From Wickerhamiella versatilis (lineage: Eukaryota): a stretch of 64,000 nucleotides of DNA. The notes under the pieces were generated by a model that saw nothing but the letters and a program-made list of their open reading frames with translations, was not told where the DNA came from and made no database searches. The position numbers and the translations under genes were made by a program. The stretch spans positions 868,001-932,000 of the forward strand of contig JAQOWU010000001.1 in the NCBI GenBank assembly GCA_030867685.1, in the 5' to 3' direction. Position 1 is the stretch's first letter, and each line of letters opens with the position of its first letter. This document shows positions 11,969 to 49,586 of the stretch, piece by piece.

Positions 11969-13108
11969 ATGAGTATCACACCGGAGCAGAGATTACAAGA
12001 GTTGCGAGGCAGTGAGAATGAGCCTGCTTTCGTTGCTTCACAGTACAACAAGCGCTTCAGGGTTGCTGTGATTGGTTCTGGGAATTGGGGAACAGCAGTC
12101 GCCAAGATTGTAGCTGAGAACTGCATGGAAAAGCCGTACCTTTTTCATCGGGATGTAAAGATGTGGGTACGTTCAAACGAGATCTCGGATATGAAAATGC
12201 CGGACATCATCAACACGTATCACGAGAATATCAAGTACTTGCCAGGCGTGACGCTCCCCTTCAATCTTTTTGCGTATCCTGATATCAGAGAGGTCGTCAA
12301 GGACGCCGATATCCTGATAATTAACCTGCCACACCAATTTTTGGGCGCGGTTTGTGACCAGCTTAAGGGCATTGACTTCTCCAAAAGTGTAGCCATATCT
12401 TGTCTTAAAGGAATCAACGTATCTGCACAGGGTGTGCATCTTCTGCACGAAGTAATTGAGGACAAACTCGGTTTGCACTGTGGCGTACTCAGTGGTGCCA
12501 ACATTGCGTCGGAGGTAGGACGTGAGCGTTTTTCTGAGACAACGGTAGCATTTCCGCAACCAAAATGGTACGAGGAAGGTGATGCGGATGAGCAGCTCAT
12601 CAAGGAACTGTTCCAAAGGCCCTATTTCCACGTTCAAGTGTCAGACGATGTCTGCGGCGTATCTGTCAGTGGTGCATTGAAAAACGTAGTTGCTATTGGT
12701 GCAGGACTCATTGAGGGGGTAGGATGGGGTGAGAACGCCAAAACTGCCGTCATGCGCCGGGGTCTGTTGGAGATGATAAAGTTCGGAGATGTCTTCTTCA
12801 AAGACAAGTGCCGCATGGAGACCTTCACCACTGAATCTGCAGGTGTGGCAGACTTGATCACATCCTGCTCAGGTGGCCGTAATGCCAGGGTTGGACGTGC
12901 TTTCGCACGGACAGGAAAGCCGATTCATGAGGTTGAGAAGGAGCTCCTGAATGGCCAGTCCGCACAAGGCTTGGTGACTGGTGCGGAAGTCATCGAACTT
13001 TTGGAGGCCTCTGGTAAATTGGATGAATTCCCATTACTCGTGGCTATCAATGATATTGTTAACAACAAATTGCATGTGTCTGAGCTACCGTCGCGTATCG
13101 CAGAGTAA
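11969..13108 (+). CDS. GPD1: Glycerol-3-phosphate dehydrogenase (NAD(P)+)
   Basis: GSGNWGTAVAK, ENIKYLPG, SGANIA, GALKNVVA, ESAGVADLITSCSGGRN, LLNGQSAQG. First ATG at 11969. Confidence 0.96.
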   Translation: MSITPEQRLQELRGSENEPAFVASQYNKRFRVAVIGSGNWGTAVAKIVAENCMEKPYLFHRDVKMWVRSNEISDMKMPDIINTYHENIKYLPGVTLPFNLFAYPDIREVVKDADILIINLPHQFLGAVCDQLKGIDFSKSVAISCLKGINVSAQGVHLLHEVIEDKLGLHCGVLSGANIASEVGRERFSETTVAFPQPKWYEEGDADEQLIKELFQRPYFHVQVSDDVCGVSVSGALKNVVAIGAGLIEGVGWGENAKTAVMRRGLLEMIKFGDVFFKDKCRMETFTTESAGVADLITSCSGGRNARVGRAFARTGKPIHEVEKELLNGQSAQGLVTGAEVIELLEASGKLDEFPLLVAINDIVNNKLHVSELPSRIAE

Positions 13109-14257: not shown

Positions 14258-15997
14258 TTAACTTTGTTGAGAAAGCAATGGCGCATTTAGAAGTAAGCTC
14301 TCATTAGTGGTTGATTTAAGTAATTCAACAATAATATAGCTGCTCGCTAGTGGGTTCAGGTTGCTAGCGAGTAATGTCCGATTTGGCCCGAGGCCCCAAC
14401 CTAATGATCCCCAGGGCTGACCAACTATTCTGCTCATAACTTTAGGGAGAGGGATAGTTATCGTATTATCGATGCTTTCATAGTTCTGATTCACAATTCC
14501 CACCAGCATCTGACTCCCATGAATCCAGTACGCTATGTCTAGCATTGGGTAGCTAGTCAGCTTGATTGGAGATGGCTCCGAAGCTAACAGAAAAATAGAT
14601 ACAGGGGGAACAGCAACCATTCGAGCAAATTTGCTATAGGCCATTCTCAGTTCTGGGCTCGTTGGGAACACCCAACTCATAATTCCTTTTGCCCTATGGT
14701 TAAAGCTGAGACACATCATCGCCCAAGTCTCTTCGGGCGTTGGATCACGACTCCAGTACTGTTCGCCGTTGAAAGCTTGAAGCACGGCCCAGAGTGGTTT
14801 TGGAAATCCACCGACCCATTCCTGATATTTTGAAAATGTGTCAAGTCGATTGCTGACATCCCCCAATTCGCCAGCGCAATTGTCACAGCCACAATCACCA
14901 TAAGTGCTGTTGCATACTGTATTAAACTTTCTTGAAAAACTCACATTGGTTCCGATGGGATAGGCATCTTCCAATATGTAGTCAGCGCCGGATGAATATT
15001 CTTTGAAGTAGTAATTCTCACAGTTCAAGACAAGACCAGTTGGGTGGTAAGGATCTTCCTTCTTTAGTAGTTCGTATGCGGCATATGTACTGTTAAGGGG
15101 GTCCTGCACACCATCCGGCTCATCCGCTGTATACCAGCTTAGCAAGTTTGACCTGTCTCTGACATGAGGAATTTGCTCTCGTACCCAAGTTAGATTAGTA
15201 TACGACCAGCGCATATTGTACTGATACCACAGATTAGACCCATCTAGCCAGTCAAACAGAAAGTTCAGATCATCCCCGTCAAAGGCACAGCCAGGATTAA
15301 TTGCAGTTAGCCCCAGATCATGGTAAGCTGTGACATTCGCAGAACTATAATTCAGATATTGCCAACATCCTGTATAAAAACCGAAAGGTAGTAAAGGCTC
15401 AAATGCATAGTCAGTGGCATTATTAGCCACTAACATGCCACCGTGCAAATTGTCAATTTTTACCATGCTGCCAATGCGCTTTGTAGGTAAGTAAAGAAGC
15501 GACGCAGTAGTAGTAAAAGACTCTCTTAAATTAGCGTCCGAAACGAAACCACAAAGGGTGATCAGGTAAGGATCTAATCGTGGCTCCAGTCCAGTGAAGT
15601 TTATCTCTACTAGGTTGGTTGGAGAGTTTACTGAAATTTGTTCTCTCGCTAATGTAAGATTTGTCTCTTCGATAATGGCGTCGAATGAGAGCCTCACAGA
15701 TGCATTGCTAATGTTAAAGGGCCAAGGCTGACCGTGAATATGAGATAAAGTCGCATCGACCATCAGCTCACCAGTAAATTCATCACTGACATAGATACTA
15801 TGGCGTGTCTCTGCCCTGAAATAAAGCATTGGCTCATTTGAAAAGCGAGGAGGTTCGAATTGACCCCCAGGGTCAATATTTGGTGATCCAGATTCGTAAG
15901 GCTTGCCGCACCACCGCGGAAGCTCTACGACTTCTTCATTGTGTGTATATCCCCAAGATGTACCTAAAATTAAAGCCAGCTGAACTGTCGCTTTCAT
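14258..15997 (-). CDS. Secreted glycoside-hydrolase-like protein of unknown family
   Basis: Signal peptide MKATVQLALILGTSWG and many sequons. TIM-barrel GH-like motifs WYTADEPDG, DAYPIG, WAVLQAF, and Cys cluster YGDCGCDNC. Confidence 0.65.
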   Translation of the reverse strand: MKATVQLALILGTSWGYTHNEEVVELPRWCGKPYESGSPNIDPGGQFEPPRFSNEPMLYFRAETRHSIYVSDEFTGELMVDATLSHIHGQPWPFNISNASVRLSFDAIIEETNLTLAREQISVNSPTNLVEINFTGLEPRLDPYLITLCGFVSDANLRESFTTTASLLYLPTKRIGSMVKIDNLHGGMLVANNATDYAFEPLLPFGFYTGCWQYLNYSSANVTAYHDLGLTAINPGCAFDGDDLNFLFDWLDGSNLWYQYNMRWSYTNLTWVREQIPHVRDRSNLLSWYTADEPDGVQDPLNSTYAAYELLKKEDPYHPTGLVLNCENYYFKEYSSGADYILEDAYPIGTNVSFSRKFNTVCNSTYGDCGCDNCAGELGDVSNRLDTFSKYQEWVGGFPKPLWAVLQAFNGEQYWSRDPTPEETWAMMCLSFNHRAKGIMSWVFPTSPELRMAYSKFARMVAVPPVSIFLLASEPSPIKLTSYPMLDIAYWIHGSQMLVGIVNQNYESIDNTITIPLPKVMSRIVGQPWGSLGWGLGPNRTLLASNLNPLASSYIIVELLKSTTNESLLLNAPLLSQQS

Positions 15998-18529: not shown

Positions 18530-19690
18530 ATGATTAACTATCTTGAAGAGATAAAAAGTTGGCGCCACTGTCTTCATCAGCACCCTGAGCCCGGTTTTAA
18601 AGAAAATAATACCGCGGCATTTGTAGCGTCCAAGTTGCGTTCATTTGGGCTGGACCAAGTTGTTGAAGGCATAGGAGGAACAGGAGTAGTAGGTGTTCTT
18701 AAATCAGGTACTTCTACCCATTCAATCGCTCTTCGAGCCGATATGGATGCACTTTTACTGAACGAGGATCGCGCGGATTTGGCATATGCGTCTGTAAATA
18801 ATGGTGTCAAACACGGATGTGGACATGATGGTCATATAGCGATGCTTCTCGGTGCGGCAAAGACACTTGCCCTTGAAAAAAACTTTAATGGAACCGTCTA
18901 CTTTGTCTTTCAACCCGCTGAGGAATGGGGATGTGGTGCTGTGAAAATGATTGAAGATGGCCTGTTCCAGCGTTTCCCCATAGAAGAGATCTATGGGATC
19001 CATAATATGCCCTTGCTGGACATCGATACGTTTACTACAAGTGGTGGACCTGTAATGTCTGCAGAAGACAATTTTGAAATAATCCTTCATGGAATTGGGG
19101 GACATTCATCTAGACCTGAAGCGGGACATGAGGTAATGGTTGCCACTTGTGCTTTGGTACTCAGTCTTCAGACAGCCATTTCCCGTCGCGTCAGCCCTAT
19201 GGATCACGCAGTGCTTTCAGTTACAAACCTAACTTCAGATGGCACAAGAAATGTTCTTCCTAGCACGTCTCATATATATGGAGATGTTCGCTCATTTAGA
19301 GAAGAAGTCAGTCAGCTCATTGAAAGAGAAATTTTTACCATGGCAAATGGAATTTCATCCGCTTATGGCGTTACTGCAGAGATCAAGTATACACATGACT
19401 TCAAACCAACAGTGAATGATGAGGTACTTAGCTCCGAGGCTCTCGCTGCCGCTAAAGATGTGTATGGCCTTGAATCTGTGTCGAGACTCGAAGTACCATA
19501 TGCCGCATCAGAGGATTTTGCGCAGTATCTCACACATGTGCCTGGGTGCTTTGCATTTATCGGGAATGGGAGAGATAGCTATCCTTTACATCATCCTCGA
19601 TATGATTTTGCCGATGAAGCACTAGTTAAAGGTTCGAAATACTTTGTAGCTATTACCCGTCAAAGATTGAGTCTCCCACGTAGCGATTAA
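18530..19690 (+). CDS. M20D family amidohydrolase (hippurate hydrolase-like), bacterial type
   Basis: LHQHPE, ALRADMDAL, HGCGHDGH, FQPAEE, GIHNMP, SEDF, LHHPRYDF. Confidence 0.93.
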   Translation: MINYLEEIKSWRHCLHQHPEPGFKENNTAAFVASKLRSFGLDQVVEGIGGTGVVGVLKSGTSTHSIALRADMDALLLNEDRADLAYASVNNGVKHGCGHDGHIAMLLGAAKTLALEKNFNGTVYFVFQPAEEWGCGAVKMIEDGLFQRFPIEEIYGIHNMPLLDIDTFTTSGGPVMSAEDNFEIILHGIGGHSSRPEAGHEVMVATCALVLSLQTAISRRVSPMDHAVLSVTNLTSDGTRNVLPSTSHIYGDVRSFREEVSQLIEREIFTMANGISSAYGVTAEIKYTHDFKPTVNDEVLSSEALAAAKDVYGLESVSRLEVPYAASEDFAQYLTHVPGCFAFIGNGRDSYPLHHPRYDFADEALVKGSKYFVAITRQRLSLPRSD

Positions 19691-19707
19691 GATACCGTCA
19701 TATATCA

Positions 19708-20799
19708 TTATATAGTTGATGCTTCAGATCCCTCAGTTATGATTAGTGCTACCCGTGAGCCAACTTGGTTTAAGCCAAGGAAAGCACTGGCCGTATGATC
19801 GGACAAAAGTACTTCAAAAGCCGCCAAAGTTGCTGAACCACAGGGACCAGCATCTATTCCTTGACCAGCCAATTTTCTTGATGCTTCAATTGCCTGCTCA
19901 TCTGAGATTCGAACAGCTGCAGCGACATGCTTTTCTAAACTCGGCCACGCAATTGAAGAGACTGCACCACAGTTGAGCCCAAACATTCTGGTATATTCCG
20001 TTACGACACTAATGTTTGACCCAGAATTTAGGGAAGTCCACAAACAGGCAGCAGTTTCTGGCTCGACTGATATTATTTTGGCACCTTTTGTGGGTGGATA
20101 ATCTACAATAGCCTGGGCAAGGCTACCAACCCCAACTGGAACAATTACATGACTGGGATTTAACGCTGATAACTCATAGGATATCGTTGAGTAGCCTTTG
20201 ACAATCAGCCGCGGTACCTGCTCGTAACCCACCCAGGCTGTATCCTGGATCAGAAGAGTATCCTCGCTTGTGGTCGCGTGATATTGTGCAGCATAATTCA
20301 CAGCCTCATCATAACTCATATCCAGCTGCTCTACCTCAGCACCCTCTCTACGAATATGATCTATAGGCCCTTGAGCTACTGTAGCAGGAAGAAATATACG
20401 AGATTGAAGACCAACTTTTCTGGCAAACCATGCTACTGCCCGGCCATGATTTCCATCAGTCGTACAAATAAATGTAGGAGAGTTCTTGATAGAGGCCAGT
20501 TTCCGAAGTTCTGCTAATGTTGTTGAGCGTGCATCAAGATGCCAGTGTCTGCATAAATCTTGGAAGCATGCATATGACGCACCGAGTACCTTAAAAGCTG
20601 GAAGTCCAAATCTATCTGTTTCCAGCTTTGCAAAAAGCTCACCCTGAAATGAGACATTTGGAGATATTTTGATTTGTTCTGTGGGATGGTAACCTTCAAG
20701 AATTCTGCGGTGAAAATTCAGGACGGAATCATCGTAAGTTCCATTCAATCCTTCAGTAAACTTTTGATTAATGCATACGGGGCTGAAATTGCTCCTCAT
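19708..20799 (-). CDS. Diaminopropionate ammonia-lyase-like PLP enzyme (fold type II)
   Basis: KLETDRFGLPAFKVLGASYA (PLP lysine), TDGNHGRAVA, IQDTAWVGYE, VPVGVGSLA. Confidence 0.88.
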   Translation of the reverse strand: MRSNFSPVCINQKFTEGLNGTYDDSVLNFHRRILEGYHPTEQIKISPNVSFQGELFAKLETDRFGLPAFKVLGASYACFQDLCRHWHLDARSTTLAELRKLASIKNSPTFICTTDGNHGRAVAWFARKVGLQSRIFLPATVAQGPIDHIRREGAEVEQLDMSYDEAVNYAAQYHATTSEDTLLIQDTAWVGYEQVPRLIVKGYSTISYELSALNPSHVIVPVGVGSLAQAIVDYPPTKGAKIISVEPETAACLWTSLNSGSNISVVTEYTRMFGLNCGAVSSIAWPSLEKHVAAAVRISDEQAIEASRKLAGQGIDAGPCGSATLAAFEVLLSDHTASAFLGLNQVGSRVALIITEGSEASTI

Positions 20800-20926
20800 A
20801 ATTATGCGCGAACTTTCCTACAAATGGAAAGTGAAGCGACTTTATATCTTTTTCAGCAGAGATACCGGAGCGGCGCGGTCGGAGTAGATTGATCTATGCG
20901 CTGAGTAAGATGTCATCTTGGATGGC
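20800..20926. promoter_or_regulatory. 127-bp divergent promoter with four CGG triplets (candidate Zn2Cys6 site)
   Basis: CGG at 20866, 20871, 20876 and 20880 (CGGAGCGGCGCGGTCGG) between the divergent DAP lyase and Zn2Cys6 genes. Confidence 0.5.
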
Positions 20927-22660
20927 ATGAAAGAGCCGAGCCCAAGCACGTATTCTTCTGGTGCTATCCGTAGAATTCGCAATGGCGCTGCTTGTATCAG
21001 ATGTCGAAAAAATAAACGTCGCTGTGATGGCCAGAGACCTTGCAGTGCTTGCAAAAGAAATGATTATGAATGCAATTATAACTCTACTTTGAACCGCCCA
21101 GAAAATCGAAGTCGGAAGAAAGAGTTTGCTGGAACACAAGACTTAGTTGAAACACCAGTGAAGACTCAGACTCATGGGTCTAGCAACCAGGAACATCCTA
21201 TATTGGCCTTTACTAGGATAGGGATTGAGCTACCTTCTCATGGACGATGTGATCAGGGAGGGGAACCTTTGAAGGAAGAGTTAGCAGACGCAATATCAAG
21301 CTCGAAATCATTTCAAAGGCTTTTGGAGAGATTAGAGACAGCCAATATACCGAGAATCCAGCCTCCTTCTTTTAATTTAGGACTTGCCGGTGCGCAATAT
21401 CAGCTGACTGACAGTTCACTTGCAATCTCATCTTCTATTTCATTTGAGCAGCTTCAATTATTCAGTGGTGTTTATTTTGAGAAAATAAATCCTGTTTACG
21501 GTCTTGTTCGTCGAGAACAATTCGACTTCTTCGTTTCCTATATTTACGGACAACACGGAGATGATTCGGCAATTGCATCCAAGGAAATTGACAATTATAA
21601 TCCAGTTATTTGTGGGGTTGTCGCTCTTGGGTGTCTCTTTTCACGTAAAAACTATGAAGTCAGTGACGAGATCAGGGATATGATAGAAAGGAAGGTTCTT
21701 GCTATAACCCAAGAGCAGCTCGATAGTCCTCAGGCGACTGATTTAATTGAAGCTGATAGCTCAGGTGTTTTTTGTGTTATTTCTTGGATGCTGCGTACAA
21801 TATACTTGAGGTGCACTTCCTCCCCTCTCAGCACTTGGGTGGCATGTTGCCGGTCGGCGAACATAGCAAGTTTTGTAAAATTGAATGATGAGAGAAAATG
21901 GAGTTCGTTAAAACAAGATACAAATCACTTAAGACACCTTTTTTGGTCCCTGGAAATATTTAATACCTGGCTTTCCATAGAGATAGCACAGCCGAAGGCA
22001 AGCTTTCTTTATGTTACATGCCAGTACCCAATCGCTGTGGACGAAGAAGATGTGAACCCTGGACTGGTGGAATTATATGATAAGACAAAGGATGCATTTG
22101 TCACGGGAGATATCGAACCGGAGCAATGCTACAGTGCTCTTTATAGTTTACTGAGATTCAAGTCTTCTCATCCTGTAATCTCCATGGACCATGGATATCT
22201 GGCGATTATCTTATTCCGCCGCATAAAAGTGTTTAATATGAGCGAGACCACCTTAAGTGGTCTGATGAAAACAGCATTGGAGTCACTTACTAGTTGTGAA
22301 GAGCTTGCTAGAAGGGGAGAACCTTGGTGGCAAACGATAAATGTTCCTTTCCACCTCTTAACAATGGTAATCATGGCCGAAAAGCCAAGATTCACCCTGG
22401 AAATTCCAAACATCCTTGAAAGTATGGTTTCAGTAGGGCGAGAGTTTTGCACGAAAGAAGTCTCTAATGCAATATGCATCGCCCGAGAACTCATCAATAT
22501 TTTGAGGATGCTTAAAGAGAAAGAGATGCTAGCCCTGTCTAGAGGTATATCAAAAGCAGATGAAGCGTTGAGCCGAGACAAGCCTGAAACAGCATCCGAA
22601 AACCTCGATCCAAGCCTGCTACTTAATGAGCTACTTATGATGAATGAATTTTATGCCTAG
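20927..22660 (+). CDS. Zn2Cys6 transcription factor with fungal-specific TF domain
   Basis: ACIRCRKNKRRCDGQRPCSACKRNDYEC, YFEKINPVYG, RHLFW. First ATG at 20927. Confidence 0.92.
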   Translation: MKEPSPSTYSSGAIRRIRNGAACIRCRKNKRRCDGQRPCSACKRNDYECNYNSTLNRPENRSRKKEFAGTQDLVETPVKTQTHGSSNQEHPILAFTRIGIELPSHGRCDQGGEPLKEELADAISSSKSFQRLLERLETANIPRIQPPSFNLGLAGAQYQLTDSSLAISSSISFEQLQLFSGVYFEKINPVYGLVRREQFDFFVSYIYGQHGDDSAIASKEIDNYNPVICGVVALGCLFSRKNYEVSDEIRDMIERKVLAITQEQLDSPQATDLIEADSSGVFCVISWMLRTIYLRCTSSPLSTWVACCRSANIASFVKLNDERKWSSLKQDTNHLRHLFWSLEIFNTWLSIEIAQPKASFLYVTCQYPIAVDEEDVNPGLVELYDKTKDAFVTGDIEPEQCYSALYSLLRFKSSHPVISMDHGYLAIILFRRIKVFNMSETTLSGLMKTALESLTSCEELARRGEPWWQTINVPFHLLTMVIMAEKPRFTLEIPNILESMVSVGREFCTKEVSNAICIARELINILRMLKEKEMLALSRGISKADEALSRDKPETASENLDPSLLLNELLMMNEFYA

Positions 22661-23180
22661 GTGTGCCTCAGATATAGTCTTATGCATGGTGTTTGTGCTA
22701 GATAGATAAGCTATATGGTGATTATTTGCATTTATTGTTTCTTATTATGTTCTGCTAGACACCTCTTAATCTTAGTTGCTCTCTAAAAACCTGTAGCTCG
22801 AGTATTCGACAATATTAAAGACGAGAAAAGAGGGAAATTAGCGAGTTCAACGTGATACACAATCAAGGACACATGACAAAAATACGCGAAAATACTACGA
22901 GACAGAATTATTTTGATTTCACTTCAAAGGAAGAAGCAGGAGGCAGCCTAGAAATGCCAAATGGGCTGTCTCTGTTCTTAACTACGATGATGTTATCATT
23001 AGTTGTAAATGAACTTAAACAGGAGTTAGCACTATCGGAATCACTATAACAATAACTTACTTTTACTTAGTTAATTTAAACCCAAGTATGAGAGATGAGG
23101 CAAGTAACGTATAAAAAATCGACTTCAAAACCTAATAGATATACTTGTATGAGGTTTTAGGAAAGTTGGGACAAAGCTGC

Positions 23181-24560
23181 TCACTTTTCGGACTGCAAGT
23201 CGGCATAAACCTCGTCCAATGACTTGGCTAACGCGTCAATGATTTTCTGTAGATCATCCGACCCAATGATAAGAGGTGGGCACATGGCAAGTATATCTGC
23301 TCCTAACGCACGCAGAAGAACACCATGCTTCTGCACTGCCTCGTTGACTCTTTGAGCAACTTTTAGTTCGGGAGGAAAATGCTTACGGGATTCCTTGTCG
23401 GCAACGAACTCAAGGGCTGCCACCAGGCCAATGCCACGAACTTCGCCTACCAGAGGATGATTTTCCAGCTTATGGAGCCCTTCCAAAAAAGCTGGTGAAA
23501 CTCTCTTTACATGTTCAACGATATCCAGCTCATCATACATACGAAGAGCTTCCAGGGCTACCGCAGCAGCTACAGGATGACCACTATAGGTATAACCATG
23601 TCCAAATCCACCTAGCTCATTGCTTTGGCGTGCAATTGCTTGGTAAATCTGGTCACTAACAATCAGTGCTGAGATTGGCAGGAAAGCAGCAGAGAGTGCC
23701 TTCGCGCAAGTCATCATATCCGGCTTGATATGCTCGGTCTCAGATCCCCAGTAGTAACCTGTACGTCCAAAGCCACAGATGACTTCATCTGCAATCATCA
23801 AGATATCGTACTTGCGAAGTACCTCCTGGATTTTGGGGAAATAGCCGGTGGGGGGGACTATTACGCCACCAGAACCCATTACTGGCTCGGCAATAAATGC
23901 ACCGACCGTATCCGGGCCTTCCTCGAGAACTTTCTGCTCCAGTTCCGTTGCCAAGCGAGTAGAAAACTGTTCTTCCGTTTCTCCCGGCAAGCCTTCTTGA
24001 TAAAGGTGTGGACAGCGTACGTGAATCACGTCCACCCGCGACTCACCCCAGCCTTTGTGCATACCTGAGAGTCCACTGAGGTTGGCAGCAGCAAGCGTGG
24101 TGCCATGATAGCTACGCTCACGAGCTATCATGCGAGTCTTTTGTGGCTTCCCAATAGCTGAGTGATAGTAACGCACAAGCTTAACCGCAGTATCCACAGC
24201 CTCTGACCCCGAAGTCTGCAAAAGTACTTTATCCAACCCAGGAGGTGCATGTTTTACAAGCTCTTCTGAGAGTTCCACCACTGGGCCATGACTACGATGA
24301 GCAAATGTGTGCTGATAGGGCAATTTGTTGAGTTGCTTGTAGGCAGCATCAGCCAAGCGTGGTTGGCTGAATCCCAAGCTGGCACACCATAATCCGGACA
24401 TACCCTCAAGATAACGATGACCATGCTCATCGATAACATAAACACCATCGCCTTTCTCTATAACCATTGGTCCCACCTTCTCATGTTGACGCATATTGGT
24501 CTGTGGATGAACATGATACGAGATATCACGCTGAGCTTGCGTCGAAAATTTATTGGACAT
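23181..24560 (-). CDS. Class III omega-aminotransferase (omega-amino acid/putrescine:pyruvate type), bacterial type
   Basis: YLEGMSGLWCASLG, SGSEAVD, YHG, FIAEPVMGSGG, IADEVICGFGRTG, PDMMTCAKALS, HGYTYSGHP. Confidence 0.93.
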   Translation of the reverse strand: MSNKFSTQAQRDISYHVHPQTNMRQHEKVGPMVIEKGDGVYVIDEHGHRYLEGMSGLWCASLGFSQPRLADAAYKQLNKLPYQHTFAHRSHGPVVELSEELVKHAPPGLDKVLLQTSGSEAVDTAVKLVRYYHSAIGKPQKTRMIARERSYHGTTLAAANLSGLSGMHKGWGESRVDVIHVRCPHLYQEGLPGETEEQFSTRLATELEQKVLEEGPDTVGAFIAEPVMGSGGVIVPPTGYFPKIQEVLRKYDILMIADEVICGFGRTGYYWGSETEHIKPDMMTCAKALSAAFLPISALIVSDQIYQAIARQSNELGGFGHGYTYSGHPVAAAVALEALRMYDELDIVEHVKRVSPAFLEGLHKLENHPLVGEVRGIGLVAALEFVADKESRKHFPPELKVAQRVNEAVQKHGVLLRALGADILAMCPPLIIGSDDLQKIIDALAKSLDEVYADLQSEK

Positions 24561-25777: not shown

Positions 25778-26941
25778 ATGTTTTCAGGGCCAAAACCTGT
25801 TTTACACCTGGAAGCAACTCCTCGACAATCCTTTGAGCCCGGAAGCTGGCTTAAAGGAGTCGTTTCCCTGGAAGTGAGCGACCCTCAGTCCTTAAGGTCT
25901 GTCGATATTATATTGAAAGGTATTTGCGACTTATATGTTAGCAAGCAAGCCGTTCAGGATCGTAACCACAAGACCAAGGATATAAAAAAAGAAAAAGATG
26001 TATTTCATGAAAAAGATGTTTTTCTCGAGCTTGCTGCAGATACGTGCTCCGAAGGAAAGGGGGATCAGACATCACGCAACCATGCAAAAGAAATTCATTT
26101 TTCAATCCCAATTCCAACTTCTTGTATTAGTTCTAAGCAGAGCAAATGGACAGGGCGGCCAATTCCTTCATCAACTGCTTTATTTTTCGACAGAGGCAGT
26201 GTTCGCTACGAACTGGTTGCTGTTGTCACTAGAAAGGCTCTCTTAAACAAATCACTCAAGTCAAAACTACAAATAGAAGTGCATAATTACTCTCAAGAGG
26301 AGAATTGTCGATCGGAATATGGGCAAACGGCCTTTGAGGTCCCTGTTTATGGTTTGGACTCTAAAACTATGCGGGCGCGTATGCGGTCAATAGTTGGGAA
26401 AACACAACCTAGGGAGCTATGGTTTTATCGTTGCAGGCTTGATCTGAATCCGTCTTGCCTTGGACAGTTTCTCTCCGAAGTCGCTTCGTTCTATATAGAG
26501 CCTACTCAATCTGGAGGTGATTTAATTTTGGATAGTTTCCAGGTTGAACTAACGACAATCACCAATGTAGAAACGAAAGGACTTTCTGAAGTGACCAGAA
26601 ACTGCATAAACCTTGTTTGCAAAAAGAACGTCGGGCGCAAAATAGCATACAAGGACCAGTCAAGCCTATTCGAAACTATAATACTTCCAACAAACTTGCC
26701 AGTAACCCAAAGTGGAGCTACTTTCAGTGTCTCCCATGAAATCAAAGTGGTCATAGGTGTGAGACCAGACTCTGGAGTCAATGCTGCTGCCAAAACCGTT
26801 GAAACGACCTGTAAACTTCATGTTGCTTCAAGGGCTATAACTCATGACTCTGCATCTCCTAAGTCACTCGAGAGAGACCACGAATCTAAAGATGAAAAAA
26901 GCTTGCCACCACCGTCATATGAAGCTACTACCGGTGCATAA
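25778..26941 (+). CDS. Alpha-arrestin (ART)-like protein
   Basis: Arrestin-N-like beta strands (LKGVVSLEV, VDIILKG, GSVRYELVAVV), arrestin-C-like FSVSHEIKVVI, and a C-terminal PPSY Rsp5-binding motif. Confidence 0.75.
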   Translation: MFSGPKPVLHLEATPRQSFEPGSWLKGVVSLEVSDPQSLRSVDIILKGICDLYVSKQAVQDRNHKTKDIKKEKDVFHEKDVFLELAADTCSEGKGDQTSRNHAKEIHFSIPIPTSCISSKQSKWTGRPIPSSTALFFDRGSVRYELVAVVTRKALLNKSLKSKLQIEVHNYSQEENCRSEYGQTAFEVPVYGLDSKTMRARMRSIVGKTQPRELWFYRCRLDLNPSCLGQFLSEVASFYIEPTQSGGDLILDSFQVELTTITNVETKGLSEVTRNCINLVCKKNVGRKIAYKDQSSLFETIILPTNLPVTQSGATFSVSHEIKVVIGVRPDSGVNAAAKTVETTCKLHVASRAITHDSASPKSLERDHESKDEKSLPPPSYEATTGA

Positions 26942-27063: not shown

Positions 27064-27963
27064 TTAAGCCGTTTTAAAGTATTCCACCATATCGTAATTC
27101 TTGACCCAGTCGTCGTCATTCAAGTATGATCTTGTATGCAAGCCTTTGACAGGGATTGGATCAGTACCAAGCATAGCTCCTGGGTGTATCAGGAATGGCA
27201 GAGCGCCAATCAAAATCATGAGACCATCAAGAATCAAGAAATATTTTTCGGTAGTTATGAGAGAGCCCCTTAAACCATTTCCAAACTCAGCCGAGCGATA
27301 TATTGAACGAACCAACACGAATACAGTGGATACCATAGTAAATGGTGCTAATAATGGAAAGAATCTCCTGGAACGGACAGCTGCAAATCTTCTTGAAAAG
27401 TTTATAGCATCCTTTTCTCGTCTGACATTTCTTATCACGATACCATAAAGGATAAGGAACACAATAAGCGTGAGAGACTGTAAAGCAGTACCACCTATCA
27501 AGATCCACTTGCCGGTCTCCCTCTGACCGTTCCCGCTAGCAAGACCACCACCAGCACCTTGAAGAAACAGAGCGAACACATCACAGCTGATAAAAATAGC
27601 ACTGTACGCCATTGGCCGCAATGGGCTGTACCTTTGGCCGTATACTTGAATATACTTAGCAAGTAAGTAGTAGAGACCCGCAGCCATAAATATTGGAGCT
27701 ATTACCAGACATATTGACTGCATTTCGTACAAGCTTTGACTATAAATGTCCTCCCTGGCTTTCAGTCGCGCAGAGTATCCAATGAGCTCCAGTAACATTG
27801 TTATTGTCCAGCATACACCGAACCACCACTGGCGGAAAAATACCCCAGCTAAAGCATGATATAAAAGTAGCAAACAGGCTATAGCTACAGCAAGTGCGTT
27901 GACACCAAGATTTGGAATGTAACCGAAAAGGGAGTTCTCAACTTCCGAGGAGGAATAGCTCAT
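27064..27963 (-). CDS. RTA1/Rsb1 family 7-TM protein
   Basis: LELIGYSAR, IAPIFMAAGLY, CDVFALFLQGAGGG, RSIYRSAE, EKYFLILDG. Confidence 0.93.
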   Translation of the reverse strand: MSYSSSEVENSLFGYIPNLGVNALAVAIACLLLLYHALAGVFFRQWWFGVCWTITMLLELIGYSARLKAREDIYSQSLYEMQSICLVIAPIFMAAGLYYLLAKYIQVYGQRYSPLRPMAYSAIFISCDVFALFLQGAGGGLASGNGQRETGKWILIGGTALQSLTLIVFLILYGIVIRNVRREKDAINFSRRFAAVRSRRFFPLLAPFTMVSTVFVLVRSIYRSAEFGNGLRGSLITTEKYFLILDGLMILIGALPFLIHPGAMLGTDPIPVKGLHTRSYLNDDDWVKNYDMVEYFKTA

Positions 27964-28180
27964 AGCGTGAAAAAGTTAAAAATGTATATATGACTACGCA
28001 AAAATGCGCTAATAATCATATGTTGATTAGAACCGATCTTAGAACACATTACTTACTTTGGCTCAGCTGTAAATCAAAGCGGCTGTAACTTTTTTATAAT
28101 TCCAGTTAATTTATGAGTTCCCCCTCTATTTTCAAGCATAGGGCGGCAGTAGCTAACACTAGAGAGAGCTTTTCCAAAGA

Positions 28181-28397
28181 GGGTTAGGTTATTATGACAA
28201 TGATGCGCTTGCGGTCTACTCTGTCAGATCTCTATATCTCTATCCGCGCGTTCCTGGCCGGATTTATGTGAAAATATTGTATTGCTACGTATTTCATACT
28301 GTCATGTACTATATAGTTTCGCTTCAAATCTCCTAGGTGGTCTAATAACATAAAACAAATGATACCATGGTATGCGTGGGTTAGGTTATTATGACAA
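28181..28397 (+). repeat. 20-bp exact direct repeat GGGTTAGGTTATTATGACAA, 2 copies
   Basis: Copies at 28181-28200 and 28378-28397. Confidence 0.9.
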
Positions 28398-28936
28398 CAA
28401 ACACGTGTCTGTATTCCCTATACCACTGAAATCCCAAATATTTGCATGTTATGGTACTGATTCTATAGGAGGTTTAAGAATATCAAAAAATCATAAAGTC
28501 GTAATAAGGGCTAGATTCTTCACGAAATGCGAATCTACAACAGTGTCACTGTAGATGCGATTAGAGAATTTGGCGAATTCTGTGCATTAATTTTTAAAAA
28601 TAAAAATGCAAAACTATAAGATTCCTGGGCTTAGCTGGTGGTGTGCTTAAATACAGGCTCGGTGACTAACATAATACTATTGGACAGGTTTCTGGTATCC
28701 AAATGTAGACTTCACATGAGTCAATATAACATTGATGCATATCGTAGCTGGTATTGCAGTTAAAACCATACCTACACGCTATTATTGCCTCCATTTTCTT
28801 AATATGTAGCAACCAGTGACGTTATTAAGAGGTAAAAATAGCTTTGTTTCAAACTGTTTATAGACGCAATTAGTTTCTGAGTTCCATATGTTTTCGGTTT
28901 TACGCCATTAAAAAAAAATTCAATGACATATATTAC

Positions 28937-29554
28937 TCAGTTGGTGGAATAACTAGGGAAACTTGGCTGCATATGTACAATCTGTTGCCCCATAAAAGGA
29001 GGCGGATAGCAGTAACAAATCATGTCGACTAATGGCCTCATTTTTTCTCTGAACAGTTGAGTGGAAATAGGCTTTTCAATCCCCCGGCTCAAGTCTAACA
29101 ACAGTTCTGCTAACCTTCGAGCGGAAAACCCCATCATAGCCCAGCGGTCTGAAATATGATTTTGTTGTAAAGTCATTGAAATAATTTCTATAAGTTTTAC
29201 TCCCATCTGCGAACCATTCTGATAAAATTTGAGATTTTGAACAAGTTCCTCATAGTGCTCATTATCACTAGGGTCACCTATTGCCACTTGAAACGCATTA
29301 AGAAGCCTCTCATTGATTGGAACAGTTATATTGCACAGAATTTCCTTGATAATTTCACACCTTTTTGTCACACCATAGTCAATAGTGGCTTCAAACAGTG
29401 CCTCCTTTGTAGGGTAGTGGAAGTAGAGGTTTTGGCGTGACATATGAGATGCGCGCGATATTTCCTCCATAGAAGACTTTTTAAAGCCATATCTCCGAAA
29501 AATTTCAGACGAAGCTTCGAGTATAATATCTTTTGCTGTCTTGCGATCCACCAT
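28937..29554 (-). CDS. TetR/AcrR family HTH transcriptional regulator, bacterial type
   Basis: N-terminal KDIILEASSEIFRRYGFKKSSMEEISRASHMSRQNLYFHYPTKEALF matches the TetR HTH signature. Helical C-domain; 205 aa. Confidence 0.9.
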   Translation of the reverse strand: MVDRKTAKDIILEASSEIFRRYGFKKSSMEEISRASHMSRQNLYFHYPTKEALFEATIDYGVTKRCEIIKEILCNITVPINERLLNAFQVAIGDPSDNEHYEELVQNLKFYQNGSQMGVKLIEIISMTLQQNHISDRWAMMGFSARRLAELLLDLSRGIEKPISTQLFREKMRPLVDMICYCYPPPFMGQQIVHMQPSFPSYSTN

Positions 29555-30424
29555 AAAATACGCCGACGGCGGCGCCTCGTGTGTATTAGTCAGATTGGCC
29601 TGGTCTGTTCAATATGGCCACGCAGCCGCCGCATTTCACCTAGGTATATACGAGGGGCTGCATTATTTTCCTGATCAACTTTGGAGTGAGTAATTAGCGT
29701 AATAGAGCTGTTCTCAGTACAAACATAATTACTCTAGACTTATTTGTCAATGCTGTATTAAGTCCATAGCACTGCAGAAACTCTGTGTTTCGCACGTTGT
29801 AACATTCCTTTGCCTAACTACAACTCATCAATGATGTGATTGTATTATATAGGGTCGCTTATTGTTTTGTGAAAAAATGTGTATGCTACCCGGATAATTG
29901 AATTGAAATACTGAGTTATACTGATGTTATTTTCCTGTATATACCTCTGTTTCTCTTTTAGGTGATTAATTAGGGTTCTAGACACCCTTAAATAATATGT
30001 TGCTCTTTTTCCAATCTATATTTGAAGCGACCAAGACTAGTTTTCTAGATATTAGGTGATCAAATGTTATTTTTAATAGTGTATCTCAACAATGGTATGT
30101 CATTTTCTTTAGTCTCAGTAGGTTTATATCATTGGAATAATGTTATAATCACTAATTCTCCATTTCGGGAAAAATCAAGTAAATTAACCGTACATTGTCA
30201 AATGTAATCAAGGAATATTTCCAGTCGGCTATCTTGAATTGTCCAACTAGTCTTATCTAACAAAACAACACCGATTATAAAAGAGAAAATTATATTTGAG
30301 CTCAAATACTAGTGAAAAGGTTTATGATTGTCTAACACAGTAAAGATAAGCAGGGCTGTTTACTAACACGATTTCTCGCTTGCTAGTTCACTGTGAAGAG
30401 TTTAGTTTCTAAAGAAATTCCATT

Positions 30425-31441
30425 ATGGAGACAAGTGTCACACATGATTTCGTTTCCTCCTTGCCAAAGTGTGAGCTTCACGTACACATTGAAGGGACAC
30501 TTGAGCCCGAACTCAAGCTCAAATTAGCGAGACGTAACAATATCCAGATTGGACAGCACACTGTGGAAGAAGTCAAGAATACTTATTTGTTCAGTGATTT
30601 AGCATCTTTTCTAGCAGTTTACTATCCAGCATTGAATGTCCTGCAAACTGAACAAGACTTTTACGATTTAGCCATTGAATATCTGCACAAAGCAGCAGAT
30701 AACAATGTGCGCCACGCCGAAATCTTTTTTGATCCACAGGCCCACACAAGCCGCGGTATCGACTTTGCCACGGTAATTAATGGATTGCATCGTGCCGTTG
30801 TTGATGGACGTGCTCTAAACGTCGATTCTGCGTTGATACTTTGCTTTCTACGCGATATGTCGGAGGAATCAGCGGAAAAAACTCTAATTGAAGCTTTAGC
30901 CCACAAGAACAAGCTAATTGGTGTTGGACTCGATTCAAACGAGCAGAATAACCCGCCACTGAAGTTCTTACGTCAATTTAGGGATGCTTCGGCTGCCGGC
31001 TTACGTATAACAGTTCATTGTGATATTGACCAGGAAAACTCTATTCAGCATATCCGCCAGGCACTCGAATCTCTTCATGCTGAAAGAATTGATCATGGTA
31101 CCAATATTCTCGAATGTAACGAGCTGGTGGATTTTGTTAAAAAAAAAGGAATTGGTCTGACTACTTGTCCATTGTCTAATAGTTTTGTTACTCCCACAAT
31201 GAAGAGTGACGAGATCCTAGAACTTCTGAGAAGAGGGGTCAAAGTATCTATAAATTCAGATGATCCTGCTTACTTTAACAGCTATATTAGTGACAACTAT
31301 TATGCGATTGCCCAAAAAATGGGTCTGAGCAAGGACGATATTCTTAAGTTTGCGGTGAATTCCTTTGAATCATCCTGGATATCTGAGGAGAAGAGAAAGA
31401 AATTCCTCAGAGAAATCGAGGAGTATGCTGCTAAGCATTAA
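30425..31441 (+). CDS. Adenine/adenosine deaminase family protein
   Basis: LPKCELHVHIEGTLEP, EIFFDPQAH, RIDHG, CPLSN, INSDDPAYF. Confidence 0.92.
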   Translation: METSVTHDFVSSLPKCELHVHIEGTLEPELKLKLARRNNIQIGQHTVEEVKNTYLFSDLASFLAVYYPALNVLQTEQDFYDLAIEYLHKAADNNVRHAEIFFDPQAHTSRGIDFATVINGLHRAVVDGRALNVDSALILCFLRDMSEESAEKTLIEALAHKNKLIGVGLDSNEQNNPPLKFLRQFRDASAAGLRITVHCDIDQENSIQHIRQALESLHAERIDHGTNILECNELVDFVKKKGIGLTTCPLSNSFVTPTMKSDEILELLRRGVKVSINSDDPAYFNSYISDNYYAIAQKMGLSKDDILKFAVNSFESSWISEEKRKKFLREIEEYAAKH

Positions 31442-34553: not shown

Positions 34554-35408
34554 ATGGGCCGTTTGGGAGGTAATTGTACTGTTAAAATGGCCACAGAAAC
34601 AGTTACACACACAAAGGGAAATGCGAAAGGAGACAGCGTCGACGTGTCTCCAGTGTATATTTCTATCCCAACATTCAGCAATCTCGATGACCATCGAGAC
34701 TTCCTGCTTGAGCAGATGGCTGGTGCATTCCGCGTCTTTGCCAGGCTAGGATATTGTGTAGGCACAGCCGGTCACATTAGCGTGCGTGATCCAGGCAATC
34801 GTAACCATTTTTGGCTGAACCCACTTGGAAGACATTTTGGTACGCTGAAAAAGAGTGATATGGTTCTTGTCGACCATAATGGGGACATCATTGGCGGAAG
34901 CCGCCTCCCCGTGAACAAAGCTGGATTTATGATTCACTCAGCTATACACGCAGCAAGACCAGACGTTAACGCGGCTTGCCATACGCACTCACCGAATGGA
35001 ACAGCATATTCGGCATTCGGTAAGCATTTCGACATGTTGAACCAGGACATGTGCCAGCTTTACAATAACCATGCTGTTTATAGTGATTTCGGTGGAGTAG
35101 TTCTTCGAGAATCGGAAGGAAAAAACATTGCATCAGCTCTGGGATCGAATGCGGTAGCTATACTTCAAAACCATGGCCTCCTAACAGTGGGGACGACAGT
35201 CAACGAAGCGGCAGCATTGTTTAATATAGCCGAGAGGGCGTGTTTCTCACAGCTGCAAGCAGATGCATCAAGATTTTCTCCTACACTTGTCTCTCAAGAG
35301 TCAGCAAAATATACGAAAGATGCGCAATTCTATCCGGAGTTTCTATACTATGAGTTTCTTCCCAATCTCGAATATGAAGAATATTGCGATCCCTCATTTA
35401 AGAATTAA
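34554..35408 (+). CDS. Class II aldolase/adducin family protein
   Basis: AGHISVRDP, FWLNPLG, GFMIHSAIH, CHTHS, ILQNHGLLTVG. The start may be ATG 34587. Confidence 0.92.
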   Translation: MGRLGGNCTVKMATETVTHTKGNAKGDSVDVSPVYISIPTFSNLDDHRDFLLEQMAGAFRVFARLGYCVGTAGHISVRDPGNRNHFWLNPLGRHFGTLKKSDMVLVDHNGDIIGGSRLPVNKAGFMIHSAIHAARPDVNAACHTHSPNGTAYSAFGKHFDMLNQDMCQLYNNHAVYSDFGGVVLRESEGKNIASALGSNAVAILQNHGLLTVGTTVNEAAALFNIAERACFSQLQADASRFSPTLVSQESAKYTKDAQFYPEFLYYEFLPNLEYEEYCDPSFKN

Positions 35409-48062: not shown

Positions 48063-49142
48063 TTATTGACCCCACGCATGCCGCTCGAGGTCACTGAGTT
48101 CTAGGGGAAGCCGTTTACCAATCTCAGCAGATTTTGCAGCTGTTTCCAATACTGCCATCAGTGTCACCGCCTGTTCAGGTGATACAGGATTTTTTCCTTT
48201 GCCAGAGATTGCGTCTCTGATTTCTGCATAATACTCCGCTTGTGTACCAGGGAATGCTTCTTCGCTACTTACAAGACCGTCGGGACCAAATGTCTGTAGT
48301 GGGGCTGATATTAATCCATATTCAAGATCTAGTGGTGACTGACCATCCCCAAGTTCCTTTTGAGGCTTGAGAAGACTTCCTTTCAACCCATGCACTGCAA
48401 AGCGATATGAGGGAGAAGCAACCAGCATACTGGTATGCAAAACCACATGCATTGCTCCACGAACATTATTTGGGTGATAATGAAGAGTCACTAGTGCCCA
48501 GTCATTTGTTTTTGCACCTGGTCTTGTGCATGCGATTGACGCTGAGATCTCCGAAGGAGGCCCAAAAAGCAGTAGTGCCTGATCTGCAAGATGTGGTCCT
48601 ATATCAAACCATACGCCAGACCCAGGAGCTGATCGCTCTCGCCATCTATCACGTACCTCTGGACGATACCGGTCCATATGGGACTCGAATTCAACTACTG
48701 GACCAATGGTGTTGGCTGCAAGAGCCCTTCTCAAATGGAGGAAATCACTATCCCAGCGTCTATTTTGAAAAACCGAAAGCAAAAGGCCCGTACTTGCTGC
48801 AATCTTAGCCAAAGCTCGTGATTCAGTTATGTCGAGTGTGAATGGCTTGTCTACCACGACATTTTTCCCATTCTCCAGAGCTGCTTTAGCAAGGGGAAAA
48901 TGGCTATCATTTGGAGTGGCGATTACCACTAACTTGACATCCTTGTGAACAGCCGCCTCGTGAGGTGAAGAAACAACCTCTGCATCCACACCCAAAGGTG
49001 ACAGCGCCTCGTGCACCTTCCTCGAATCGCGTGAGGAAACAACACGTAGATCCAACCCCTTTGTTTGAACAATAAAAGGAGCATGGAAGGTACTGCCTGC
49101 AAAGCCAAAACCAATCAGTGCAACAGGAATAGGCTCTATCAT
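48063..49142 (-). CDS. Gfo/Idh/MocA oxidoreductase (YdgJ/IolW-like), bacterial type
   Basis: LIGFGFAGSTFHAP, VVVDKPF, VFQNRRWDSDF, RWRE, GVWFDIGPHLADQA. Confidence 0.92.
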   Translation of the reverse strand: MIEPIPVALIGFGFAGSTFHAPFIVQTKGLDLRVVSSRDSRKVHEALSPLGVDAEVVSSPHEAAVHKDVKLVVIATPNDSHFPLAKAALENGKNVVVDKPFTLDITESRALAKIAASTGLLLSVFQNRRWDSDFLHLRRALAANTIGPVVEFESHMDRYRPEVRDRWRERSAPGSGVWFDIGPHLADQALLLFGPPSEISASIACTRPGAKTNDWALVTLHYHPNNVRGAMHVVLHTSMLVASPSYRFAVHGLKGSLLKPQKELGDGQSPLDLEYGLISAPLQTFGPDGLVSSEEAFPGTQAEYYAEIRDAISGKGKNPVSPEQAVTLMAVLETAAKSAEIGKRLPLELSDLERHAWGQ

Positions 49143-49586
49143 GCTGAAATTGGTGGGGAAAAAGCAATCAATGGAGGTAGTAATACAACGTCATTCGATT
49201 AGTTATCATACCCCTTCAATTAGATATGCTGATAAATGTCGTGACCTTATTGAAAAGATAGTGGATTTTCGAAAAATATGAAATAGGGGAATTATTCTCG
49301 GAACATTCTGTTATGTATTAGAAGATACAGATATGTTGCATCGATTTTTTTCTATACCTTCATTGCTTCAGATTTTACTTCTGGTACAGAAACTTGGGCC
49401 TACGTTATCGTTGTGTTGGCTGGTTCGAACATCGCTAAATTTGGATAAATCGTCACATAGGTAGCGAGTCCATAAATTGTGAAGGTCTTGAGACATTCTC
49501 TATTCAATGACTAGGTCAAATGCTATGCTAAGTGATACATACCACTGTCACAATCATAGATTCTTTCCTAGACAAACAACATATAG

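Follow-up and report, generated by a model that had tools for sequence, protein, structure and literature searches.

The window analyzed here, a 64,000-nucleotide stretch of contig JAQOWU010000001.1 from the yeast Wickerhamiella versatilis, carries at positions 28937 to 29554 an intact gene for a regulator of the TetR/AcrR family. The bacterial (horizontal) origin of this gene and its retention are well supported by our data, and we regard it as probable that this xenolog is a bacterial TetR/AcrR-type one-component regulator gene that has been adapted to its new host, has been kept there, and still works as a TetR protein. The open reading frame (ORF) and those of its parts to which we refer in the following, among them the helix-turn-helix (HTH) DNA-binding motif and the helices modeled with AlphaFold2 (AF2), are:

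28937..29554, minus strand: TetR-family ORF, 205 amino acids, intact, ATG start, stop codon included (ORF list, Pfam, homology, AF2, Foldseek)
29387..29524, minus strand: TetR_N HTH, the DNA-binding head, residues 11-56 (Pfam)
29012..29122, minus strand: last two helices, residues 145-181, predicted homodimer interface (AF2 helices 145-158 and 165-181)
28940..29011, minus strand: lineage-specific C-terminal tail, residues 182-205, CYPPPFMGQQIVHMQPSFPSYSTN (AF2, composition, alignment)

The ORF encodes a member of the TetR/AcrR family

The N-terminal part of the deduced protein matches the Pfam family TetR_N (PF00440) with 45.3 bits (cut-off 24; E value 7.4e-12) over residues 11-56, which correspond to profile positions 1-46 of 47. 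The initial annotation of this DNA had described an intact ORF of 205 amino acids with a full TetR HTH motif, and this description, from the ATG to the stop codon, is confirmed. The C-terminus reads ...MICYCYPPPFMGQQIVHMQPSFPSYSTN in the ORF list, and the translated 28937-29554 ORF ends in ...CYCYPPPFMGQQIVHMQPSFPSYSTN, just as had been noted initially. An in-frame stop codon is present 18 codons 5' of the ATG, and the ORF can therefore not be extended at its N-terminus without splicing. Fourteen TetR-type models of NCBIfam match the DNA-binding head (e.g., ScbR, RutR, MtrR, and FasR), but each of them only below its own equivalog cut-off, which leaves the protein outside all named equivalogs.

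An AF2 model built from a 21-row alignment [predicted local distance difference test (pLDDT) 87; predicted template modeling score (pTM) 0.77] shows 10 helices arranged in the all-helical TetR fold. When this model was compared with the PDB by Foldseek, each of the 40 matches shown was a TetR-family or TetR-type transcriptional regulator, for instance 3vuq [template modeling (TM) score 0.64/0.73], QacR, and FadR. The AF2 model, the Foldseek matches and the alignment thus all display the two-domain, all-helical TetR architecture, in which about 9-10 helices are present and the C-terminal domain is that of ligand binding and dimerization. Membership of the ORF in the TetR/AcrR family, fold included, is hence confirmed. 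The prediction of a homodimer reached an interaction prediction score from aligned errors (ipSAE) of 0.69, as compared with 0.00 for the best of three controls; TetR dimers have been solved, so that this value shows no more than a likeness to them and may reflect structures that the prediction model has learned. Of 30 proteins solved as pairs of one chain, 21 reach the mark used for ipSAE, as against 0 of 23 solved as single chains. Contacts agreed between the dimer prediction runs to at least 88%, with a partner pLDDT of at least 77, and the predicted interface comprises residues 141-185, i.e., the last two helices and the first residues of the tail.

Bacterial ancestry of the yeast gene

An exhaustive search among representative proteins retrieved 1954 relatives with E values of up to 1e-3; of these, 82 reached E ≤ 1e-10 and two E ≤ 1e-30. 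The relatives align over the full length (query residues ~4-186; 30-38% identity) and not over the HTH alone. Beyond a group of orthologues with 88-89% identity, the closest proteins are P0002 (61%; 197 amino acids), P0003 (38%), and P0004 to P0006 (30-34%), and P0002 to P0006 occur in Logan or European Nucleotide Archive (ENA) assemblies only, as is also the case for the clusters of the fungal genes of the window. From P0007 onward the relatives are bacterial, a TetR/AcrR protein of Micromonospora being one example. The best matches in GTDB, a collection whose design makes all 80 of the 80 loci bacterial, stem from Polyangiaceae, Byssovorax, Micromonospora, Gammaproteobacteria, Rhizobacter, Variovorax, and Myxococcus; they share 27-35% identity over residues ~8-186, and no bacterial sequence among these loci is closer than ~35% at the protein level. 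All named proteins among the 120 listed matches of a profile search are bacterial (Verrucomicrobia, Pseudomonas, Deltaproteobacteria, Myxococcus), and no named eukaryotic match is found among these 120. The ESM Atlas likewise returned bacterial TetR clusters only.

In a quick maximum-likelihood tree of 80 rows, the window protein falls together with P0001, P0153, P0155, P0002, P0003, P0156, P0004 to P0006, and P0037 into one clade with a support of 100 in the Shimodaira-Hasegawa-like approximate likelihood ratio test (SH-aLRT), and on the opposite side lie the other 69 rows, with all 20 named bacterial loci among them. When a quick tree was rooted with ten distant TetR proteins, eight of which fell on one side and two on the wrong side, a clade of seven rows (SH-aLRT 99), which unites the yeast proteins with four further lineages, was placed within the bacterial subfamily, behind nodes with a support of 86-94. 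The stem of the yeast clade measures 0.95 changes per column. The yeast proteins are thus nested within bacterial sequences without vertical fungal relatives among the named matches, at the resolution of a quick tree, and this nesting fits a transfer from bacteria.

The gene resides in a yeast chromosome

The top named relatives of the GPD1 protein encoded in the window (11969-13108) are two W. versatilis entries (80 and 79% identity), followed by proteins of Trichomonascus and Starmerella with ~60% identity. Because of these identities we place the host in the Wickerhamiella/Starmerella (W/S) clade, and by GPD1 alone it would be a species other than W. versatilis itself. For this group of yeasts, unusually many horizontally acquired genes, many of them bacterial, are described (PMC12461148, PMC13376923). 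The genes in the vicinity of the TetR gene that matter for this question are:

27064..27963, minus strand: RTA1-like fungal membrane protein gene, left neighbor (Pfam RTA1, 183.5 bits)
30425..31441, plus strand: adenosine/adenine-deaminase-family gene, right neighbor, divergent from the TetR gene (Pfam A_deaminase, 258 bits; TIGR01430, 341 bits)
20927-22660 and 5062-6441: Zn2Cys6 factor genes (Pfam)
25778-26941: arrestin-like gene (Pfam)

The initially noted embedding among fungal genes is therefore borne out by the RTA1-like, Zn2Cys6 and arrestin-like neighbors, besides which the window contains many genes for metabolic enzymes. The protein P0152 is identical to that of the window, and P0001, P0153, and P0155 are its relatives with 88-89% identity; the largest contigs carrying these four clusters measure 400565, 38913, 36718, and 21819 bases. 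The same four values recur as the largest contigs of the 90% clusters of the neighboring aminotransferase, deaminase, and RTA1 proteins, and the clusters of the M20, PALP, and aldolase neighbors show three or four of them. Since the TetR protein and its neighbors sit on largest contigs of the same sizes, we infer that three further assemblies share this gene order. The listing shows 20 runs, belonging to 12 studies, in which a stretch of 901 bases around the gene is present; they are metagenomes of food, fermentation and sediment, together with one coded isolate and one coded organism B. Of these 20 runs, 11 may be the window's own source, which leaves nine. Contigs from X13, X17, and X18, which are runs of other studies, span both ends of the ORF and continue into the same AT-rich flanks. 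The chromosomal context in yeast, as given by fungal neighbors, shared assemblies and bridging contigs, is thus reproducible.

The composition of the gene is that of its surroundings. The GC content of the ORF is 0.403, and that at third codon positions (GC3) is also 0.403, with the 32 ORFs of the window ranging in GC3 from 0.335 to 0.569; in its codon fit to the other genes of the window it ranks 9th of 32. Such a host-like composition implies a long residence. Collectively, the full-length homology to bacterial proteins, the nesting in the tree and the shared gene order support the initial claim of a bacterial-type regulator in a yeast genome.

Conservation of the reading frame and of the DNA-binding head

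The orthologues keep the reading frame, with 205 amino acids at 88-89% identity and 197 at 61%. In a simulation of neutral evolution by substitutions alone, in which insertions and deletions (indels) were ignored, the number of runs that remained free of stop codons fell from 118 of 400 at 89% identity to 10 of 400 at 61%, and no run of 400 was stop-free at 37%. The differences are spread unevenly along the protein (chi-square p = 0.023 for the comparison with P0001 and p = 0.0076 for that with P0002), and in both comparisons the head (residues 1-60) is the best conserved part:

P0001: residues 1-60, 97%; 61-135, 80%; 136-181, 89%; 182-205, 96% identity
P0002: residues 1-60, 77%; 61-135, 44%; 136-181, 67%; 182-205, 38% identity

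The residues that are invariant in the 21-row alignment (G23, S39, R40, Y44, K50, E103, and G158) are all present. A contig of 1293 letters from run X18, which represents a close relative and covers 28473..29775, differs from the window by 55 other letters and by six indel events that total 20 letters. All six of these events, whose 20 letters equal the gap count of the contig, are positioned outside of the ORF, an outcome with a chance of 0.021. No RNA run is listed as carrying the stretch; X18 is an RNA run by guess only, and its coverage of the gene is no firm sign of transcription. On these sequence comparisons, retention of the TetR gene, probably under purifying selection, is well supported, and the initial suspicion that the gene has been kept rather than left to decay holds up, given the frame preserved at 61% identity, the best conserved head and the 10 of 400 neutral runs.

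A second contig of X18 lies over the 3' end of the ORF (28927-29075; 151 letters; depth 2.7) and has 15 other letters (~10%), compared with ~4% in the main contig; X18 may thus contain another copy or strain that has diverged further. A scan of metagenomes for DNA of orthologues returned two distant loci only.

Bacterial gene context and the search for an operator

In 23 of the 60 bacterial loci with full flanks, a gene for a short-chain dehydrogenase/reductase (SDR) is found directly upstream of the regulator gene on the same strand, and a gene for a protein with the metallo-beta-lactamase (MBL) fold (Lactamase_B_2) is adjacent in 21 of the 60. Neither of them is adjacent to the yeast gene, and the nearest SDR gene of the window is 25 kb away. 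Since these partners are absent from the yeast locus, the regulator was kept without them. A comparison of the yeast flanks with 82 loci by tblastx detected no relic of donor DNA (best E value 1.6). The deaminase family of the right-hand neighbor is not found among the 12 most frequent clusters of bacterial neighbors, two of which were run through Pfam; these clusters thus lend no support to a joint transfer of the regulator and deaminase genes.

Loci of the Polyangiaceae type carry a conserved inverted repeat, TTGACAA-N12-TTGT(C/A)AA, in front of the SDR-TetR gene pair, where it overlies the likely -35 and -10 boxes. This pattern was read by eye from 11 such loci; in eight loci (L001, L002, L010, L012, L015, L027, L046, and L048) the repeat is located ~60-20 nucleotides before the SDR start. 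It is a plausible candidate for an autoregulatory operator of this bacterial TetR subfamily.

The C-terminal tail

Residues 182-205 contain five prolines, three glutamines, three serines and two each of phenylalanine, methionine, and tyrosine, and are devoid of aspartate, glutamate, lysine, and arginine. They are predicted to be unstructured, with pLDDT values of 61, 55, and 64 for successive blocks of residues 181-205 and no secondary structure after residue 181. In P0001, 23 of the 24 positions are identical, and P0153 has one more change. P0002 has the proximal part in common (YPPQFFIGRQVVTMQ; nine identical residues among the first 16 positions) and then ends, so that the distal PSFPSYSTN is missing from this 61% orthologue. 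Hence, the tail is real, disordered, specific to this lineage, and conserved in its proximal part (PPxF...Q.V.MQ), which may pack against the dimer or, through PPxF, provide a short motif for docking. The ends of P0003 to P0006 are short and unrelated, and the aligned bacterial relatives continue for 2 to ~20 residues past the conserved last helix with unrelated, often low-complexity sequences; as judged from this alignment, a variable C-terminal end is normal for this TetR subfamily. The tail, whose absence from bacterial homologs had been named initially as a point to be tested, is accordingly absent from them in its present form, but bacterial relatives carry unrelated tails of their own.

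A possible mode of action and its alternatives

In the scenario that we favor, an ancestor of a group of W/S-clade yeasts would have taken up a bacterial TetR/AcrR gene, which would have arrived without the SDR or MBL-fold partner genes, would then have adapted fully to the composition of the host and would have been kept under purifying selection. The protein would form a homodimer via its last two helices and would place its two HTH heads on a roughly palindromic DNA site, from which it would be released once a small molecule occupies the C-terminal pocket. As the protein would lack an activation domain, its simplest effect would be repression through occupancy of a promoter. Engineered TetR represses in yeast through promoter occupancy. 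The tail would be a disordered extension that arose in the lineage to which the window species and the 61% orthologue belong. That the protein is still a DNA-binding, ligand-gated regulator is plausible, and we lean slightly toward this view.

Several of our observations weigh against this scenario. Between the window and the assemblies with contigs of 38913, 36718, and 21819 bases, the TetR protein is identical to 88-89%, RTA1 to 90-91%, and five enzymes to 95-97%; the regulator thus evolves faster than its enzyme neighbors across the same assemblies, which points to a weaker constraint. One low-depth metagenome contig of X13 (depth 2.8) has an insertion of two letters after position 29223, within the ORF and beside a run of A, and this insertion is either an assembly error or a frame-shifted allele present in some population. 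None of the 21 aligned proteins matches a Pfam TetR_C family at a meaningful level, and this comparison thus gives no hint of the ligand class. The inverted repeats found in region 27964-30424 are only short (8-14 nucleotides). The candidate operator of the bacteria has no exact match in the window with spacers of 9-14 nucleotides; with up to three mismatches there are 20 matches compared with 19.1 expected, and the best of them lies inside the TetR ORF itself. Finally, P0003 to P0006 and P0037 could stem from unsampled bacteria close to the donor, which would alter the timing and the number of transfers. If they stem from yeasts, one old gain followed by divergence would be implied; their GARP/FYMINK composition is intermediate and not decisive.

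Some of these points would be expected of a decaying passenger, i.e., of a functionless transferred gene that has stayed open by chance or under weak constraint in a permissive, xenolog-rich region. Such a gene might well evolve faster than neighboring enzymes, might be represented by a possible 2-letter insertion allele in X13, and could have lost partners that in bacteria stand beside the regulator in 23 of 60 (SDR) and 21 of 60 (MBL-fold) loci. The closest comparison alone proves little, with 118 of 400 neutral runs stop-free at 89% identity, and relaxed selection on xenologs has been described for the chromosome end domains of W. versatilis (Brito et al., 2026; PMC13376923). A passenger is nevertheless unlikely in our judgment: at 61% identity, a level at which only 10 of 400 neutral runs (indels ignored) were stop-free, the frame is still intact, substitutions avoid the HTH and the indels of X18 avoid the ORF, all family-invariant residues are present, and the fully host-like composition implies long residence. 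Alternatively, the TetR fold might have been retained in what is now a cytoplasmic factor that binds a small molecule or a protein and no longer DNA. The window yielded no operator-like site, no nuclear localization signal is evident in the protein by eye, and the rapid divergence of the pocket-forming middle part might reflect a change of function. However, it is the HTH that is most conserved, and S39, R40, Q41, Y44, H46, and K50 are those of the bacterial consensus SRQGLYLHF..K, an agreement in the recognition helix that is hard to explain without DNA binding; moreover, passive entry of a ~47-kDa dimer into the nucleus is plausible. We therefore hold a loss of DNA binding to be distinctly unlikely.

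The initial annotation had gone further and had seen in the tail an added, eukaryote-like activation region that would turn the protein into a natural counterpart of the tetracycline-controlled transactivator (tTA), with the TetR core on the DNA and the tail, rich in proline, glutamine, and serine, recruiting the transcription machinery of the yeast. The tail in this form is indeed absent from bacterial relatives, is disordered by prediction, is conserved (23 of 24 positions in P0001; nine of the first 16 in P0002) and offers residues that are both bulky and hydrophobic (F, M, I, V, M, F, and Y). Strong yeast activation domains are typically acidic as well as hydrophobic. The tail consists of just 24 amino acids without D, E, K, or R and hence without a single acidic residue, and an appended activation domain of the acidic and hydrophobic kind is not what we find; its PSFPSYSTN part is not in P0002, residues 181-185 lie within the predicted dimer interface, and the unrelated tails of bacterial relatives (2 to ~20 residues) make a variable end normal. 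The tTA analogy is unsupported, because the tail is uncharged and because bacterial relatives have tails of their own of up to ~20 residues, and we give little credence to an activator of this type. An artefact, be it a bacterial contaminant read or a chimeric contig in a yeast assembly, would be suggested by the finding that the stretch is present mostly in metagenomes, where chimeras occur. Yet most bacterial relatives are GC-rich (GARP-rich) in composition, unlike the ORF with its GC content of 0.40, the flanks resemble yeast DNA in being AT-rich, the gene order with fungal neighbors is common to four assemblies, the contigs of X13, X17, and X18 bridge the ends of the ORF into these flanks, and no bacterial sequence exceeds ~35% protein identity. 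Contamination or chimerism of the locus is very unlikely; an artefact, which had been named initially as something to be checked, is close to being refuted by the shared assemblies, the bridging contigs, and the host-like composition.

Other features of the window

The two intergenic regions that flank the TetR gene, whose functions are presumed from sequence, are:

29555..30424: AT-rich intergenic region of 870 bp, presumed promoter, common to the TetR gene and the divergent deaminase gene
27964..28936: downstream intergenic region, comprising the 3' flank of the TetR gene and the presumed promoter of the RTA1-like gene

In the former, a TATATA sequence is located at 29645-29650, that is, 91-96 nucleotides 5' of the TetR ATG. 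Two GC-rich stretches with CGG/CCG triplets (~29560-29585 and ~29617-29640) interrupt this otherwise AT-rich region; they may represent either binding sites of fungal Zn2Cys6 factors or simply the local composition. Directly after the TetR stop codon, an ATATAT element and a run of nine T residues follow on the minus strand. Neither a second copy nor a paralogue of the TetR gene was detected within the window by tblastn, and no tRNA gene is present in these 64 kb. The long ORFs 37-972 (311 amino acids) and 14258-15997 (579 amino acids) have no Pfam match at E ≤ 1e-4; the 579-amino-acid protein was found again in related assemblies.

Enzymes encoded at 18530-24560, 34554-35408, and 48063-50726 score above the curated cut-offs of bacterial and archaeal subfamily models from NCBI: an aminotransferase (PRK06105; 666.5 bits, cut-off 517), a class II aldolase (PRK06208; 284.9 bits, cut-off 255), an oxidoreductase (PRK11579; 346.4 bits, cut-off 330), and an amidohydrolase (TIGR01891; 312.5 bits, cut-off 153.75). 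In this respect the window may resemble the chromosome 'End' domains described for W. versatilis and be rich in xenologs.

Significance of a transferred regulator

Transferred genes that eukaryotes keep are overwhelmingly genes for enzymes and transporters. A transferred regulator must gain DNA targets and a role within a foreign regulatory system, and our interest in the gene studied here stems from the fact that regulators are seldom kept after transfer and that its pattern of conservation makes a functional test worthwhile. The protein has remained intact through ~40% divergence among yeasts, with its DNA-reading head most conserved, and it offers a concrete, testable case in which to ask whether and how a prokaryotic one-component switch becomes integrated into the transcription of a eukaryote. 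Should it bind DNA and respond to a metabolite, it would represent an orthogonal sensor that is ready-made and adapted to yeast; otherwise, it would show over what time a non-enzymatic xenolog can survive in the permissive chromosome regions that have been described for the clade. It is possible, although we are doubtful, that one early capture within the W/S clade has given rise to a small eukaryotic TetR family (the window protein, its 89% and 61% orthologues, P0003 to P0006, and P0037, all from unannotated assemblies) of nuclear ligand-gated regulators, with a new docking tail in one sub-lineage. A eukaryotic TetR family with a nuclear function would be a natural counterpart of the synthetic Tet switches.

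Comparison with known systems

The most closely related system is an uncharacterized bacterial TetR/AcrR subfamily (Polyangiaceae, Byssovorax, Micromonospora, Rhizobacter, Variovorax, Myxococcus, Verrucomicrobia, and others), whose members are homologous over residues ~8-186 and have the same HTH consensus, the same last helix (...MR.AV.IVC) and the same predicted fold as the yeast protein. The yeast protein differs from them by its long stem, its own tail, a host-like composition and a gene without adjacent SDR and MBL-fold genes. Solved TetR structures [FadR of T. thermophilus (3ang/3anp), QacR, TTHA0167 (3vuq), and a Legionella protein (3on4)] match the fold of the whole chain with TM scores of 0.5-0.73 at 13-22% sequence identity, and in sequence they match the head alone (residues 4-66; E values of 5e-7 to 1e-5); none of them points to a ligand. 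The engineered TetR, tTA, and reverse tTA proteins make plain that a dimer with the TetR fold is feasible in a eukaryotic nucleus. tTA has a viral activation domain that is strongly acidic, whereas the tail of the yeast protein has zero acidic residues.

Our literature search retrieved no paper that describes a natural TetR-family gene in a yeast or another fungus. The main text of the report on W/S-clade xenologs contains no mention of TetR, and its lists of xenologs, in which the TetR gene may appear, stand in the supplements (PMC13376923). That report counts six gene-specific activators of transcription, xenologs of bacterial origin, in W. versatilis and one each in two other species, along with a further three putative transcription factors (Brito et al., 2026; PMC13376923). 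The initial premise that transferred regulators are rarely kept is thus correct in general, but on these counts of bacterial-derived regulators the W/S clade is an exception to it (PMC13376923). The bacterial xenologs of that report and the TetR gene of the window have the host clade and the donor domain in common (Brito et al., 2026; PMC13376923). The product of this gene belongs to the TetR/AcrR family, and in evolutionary terms its acquisition adds one more bacterial xenolog to the yeast clade that is best known for them.

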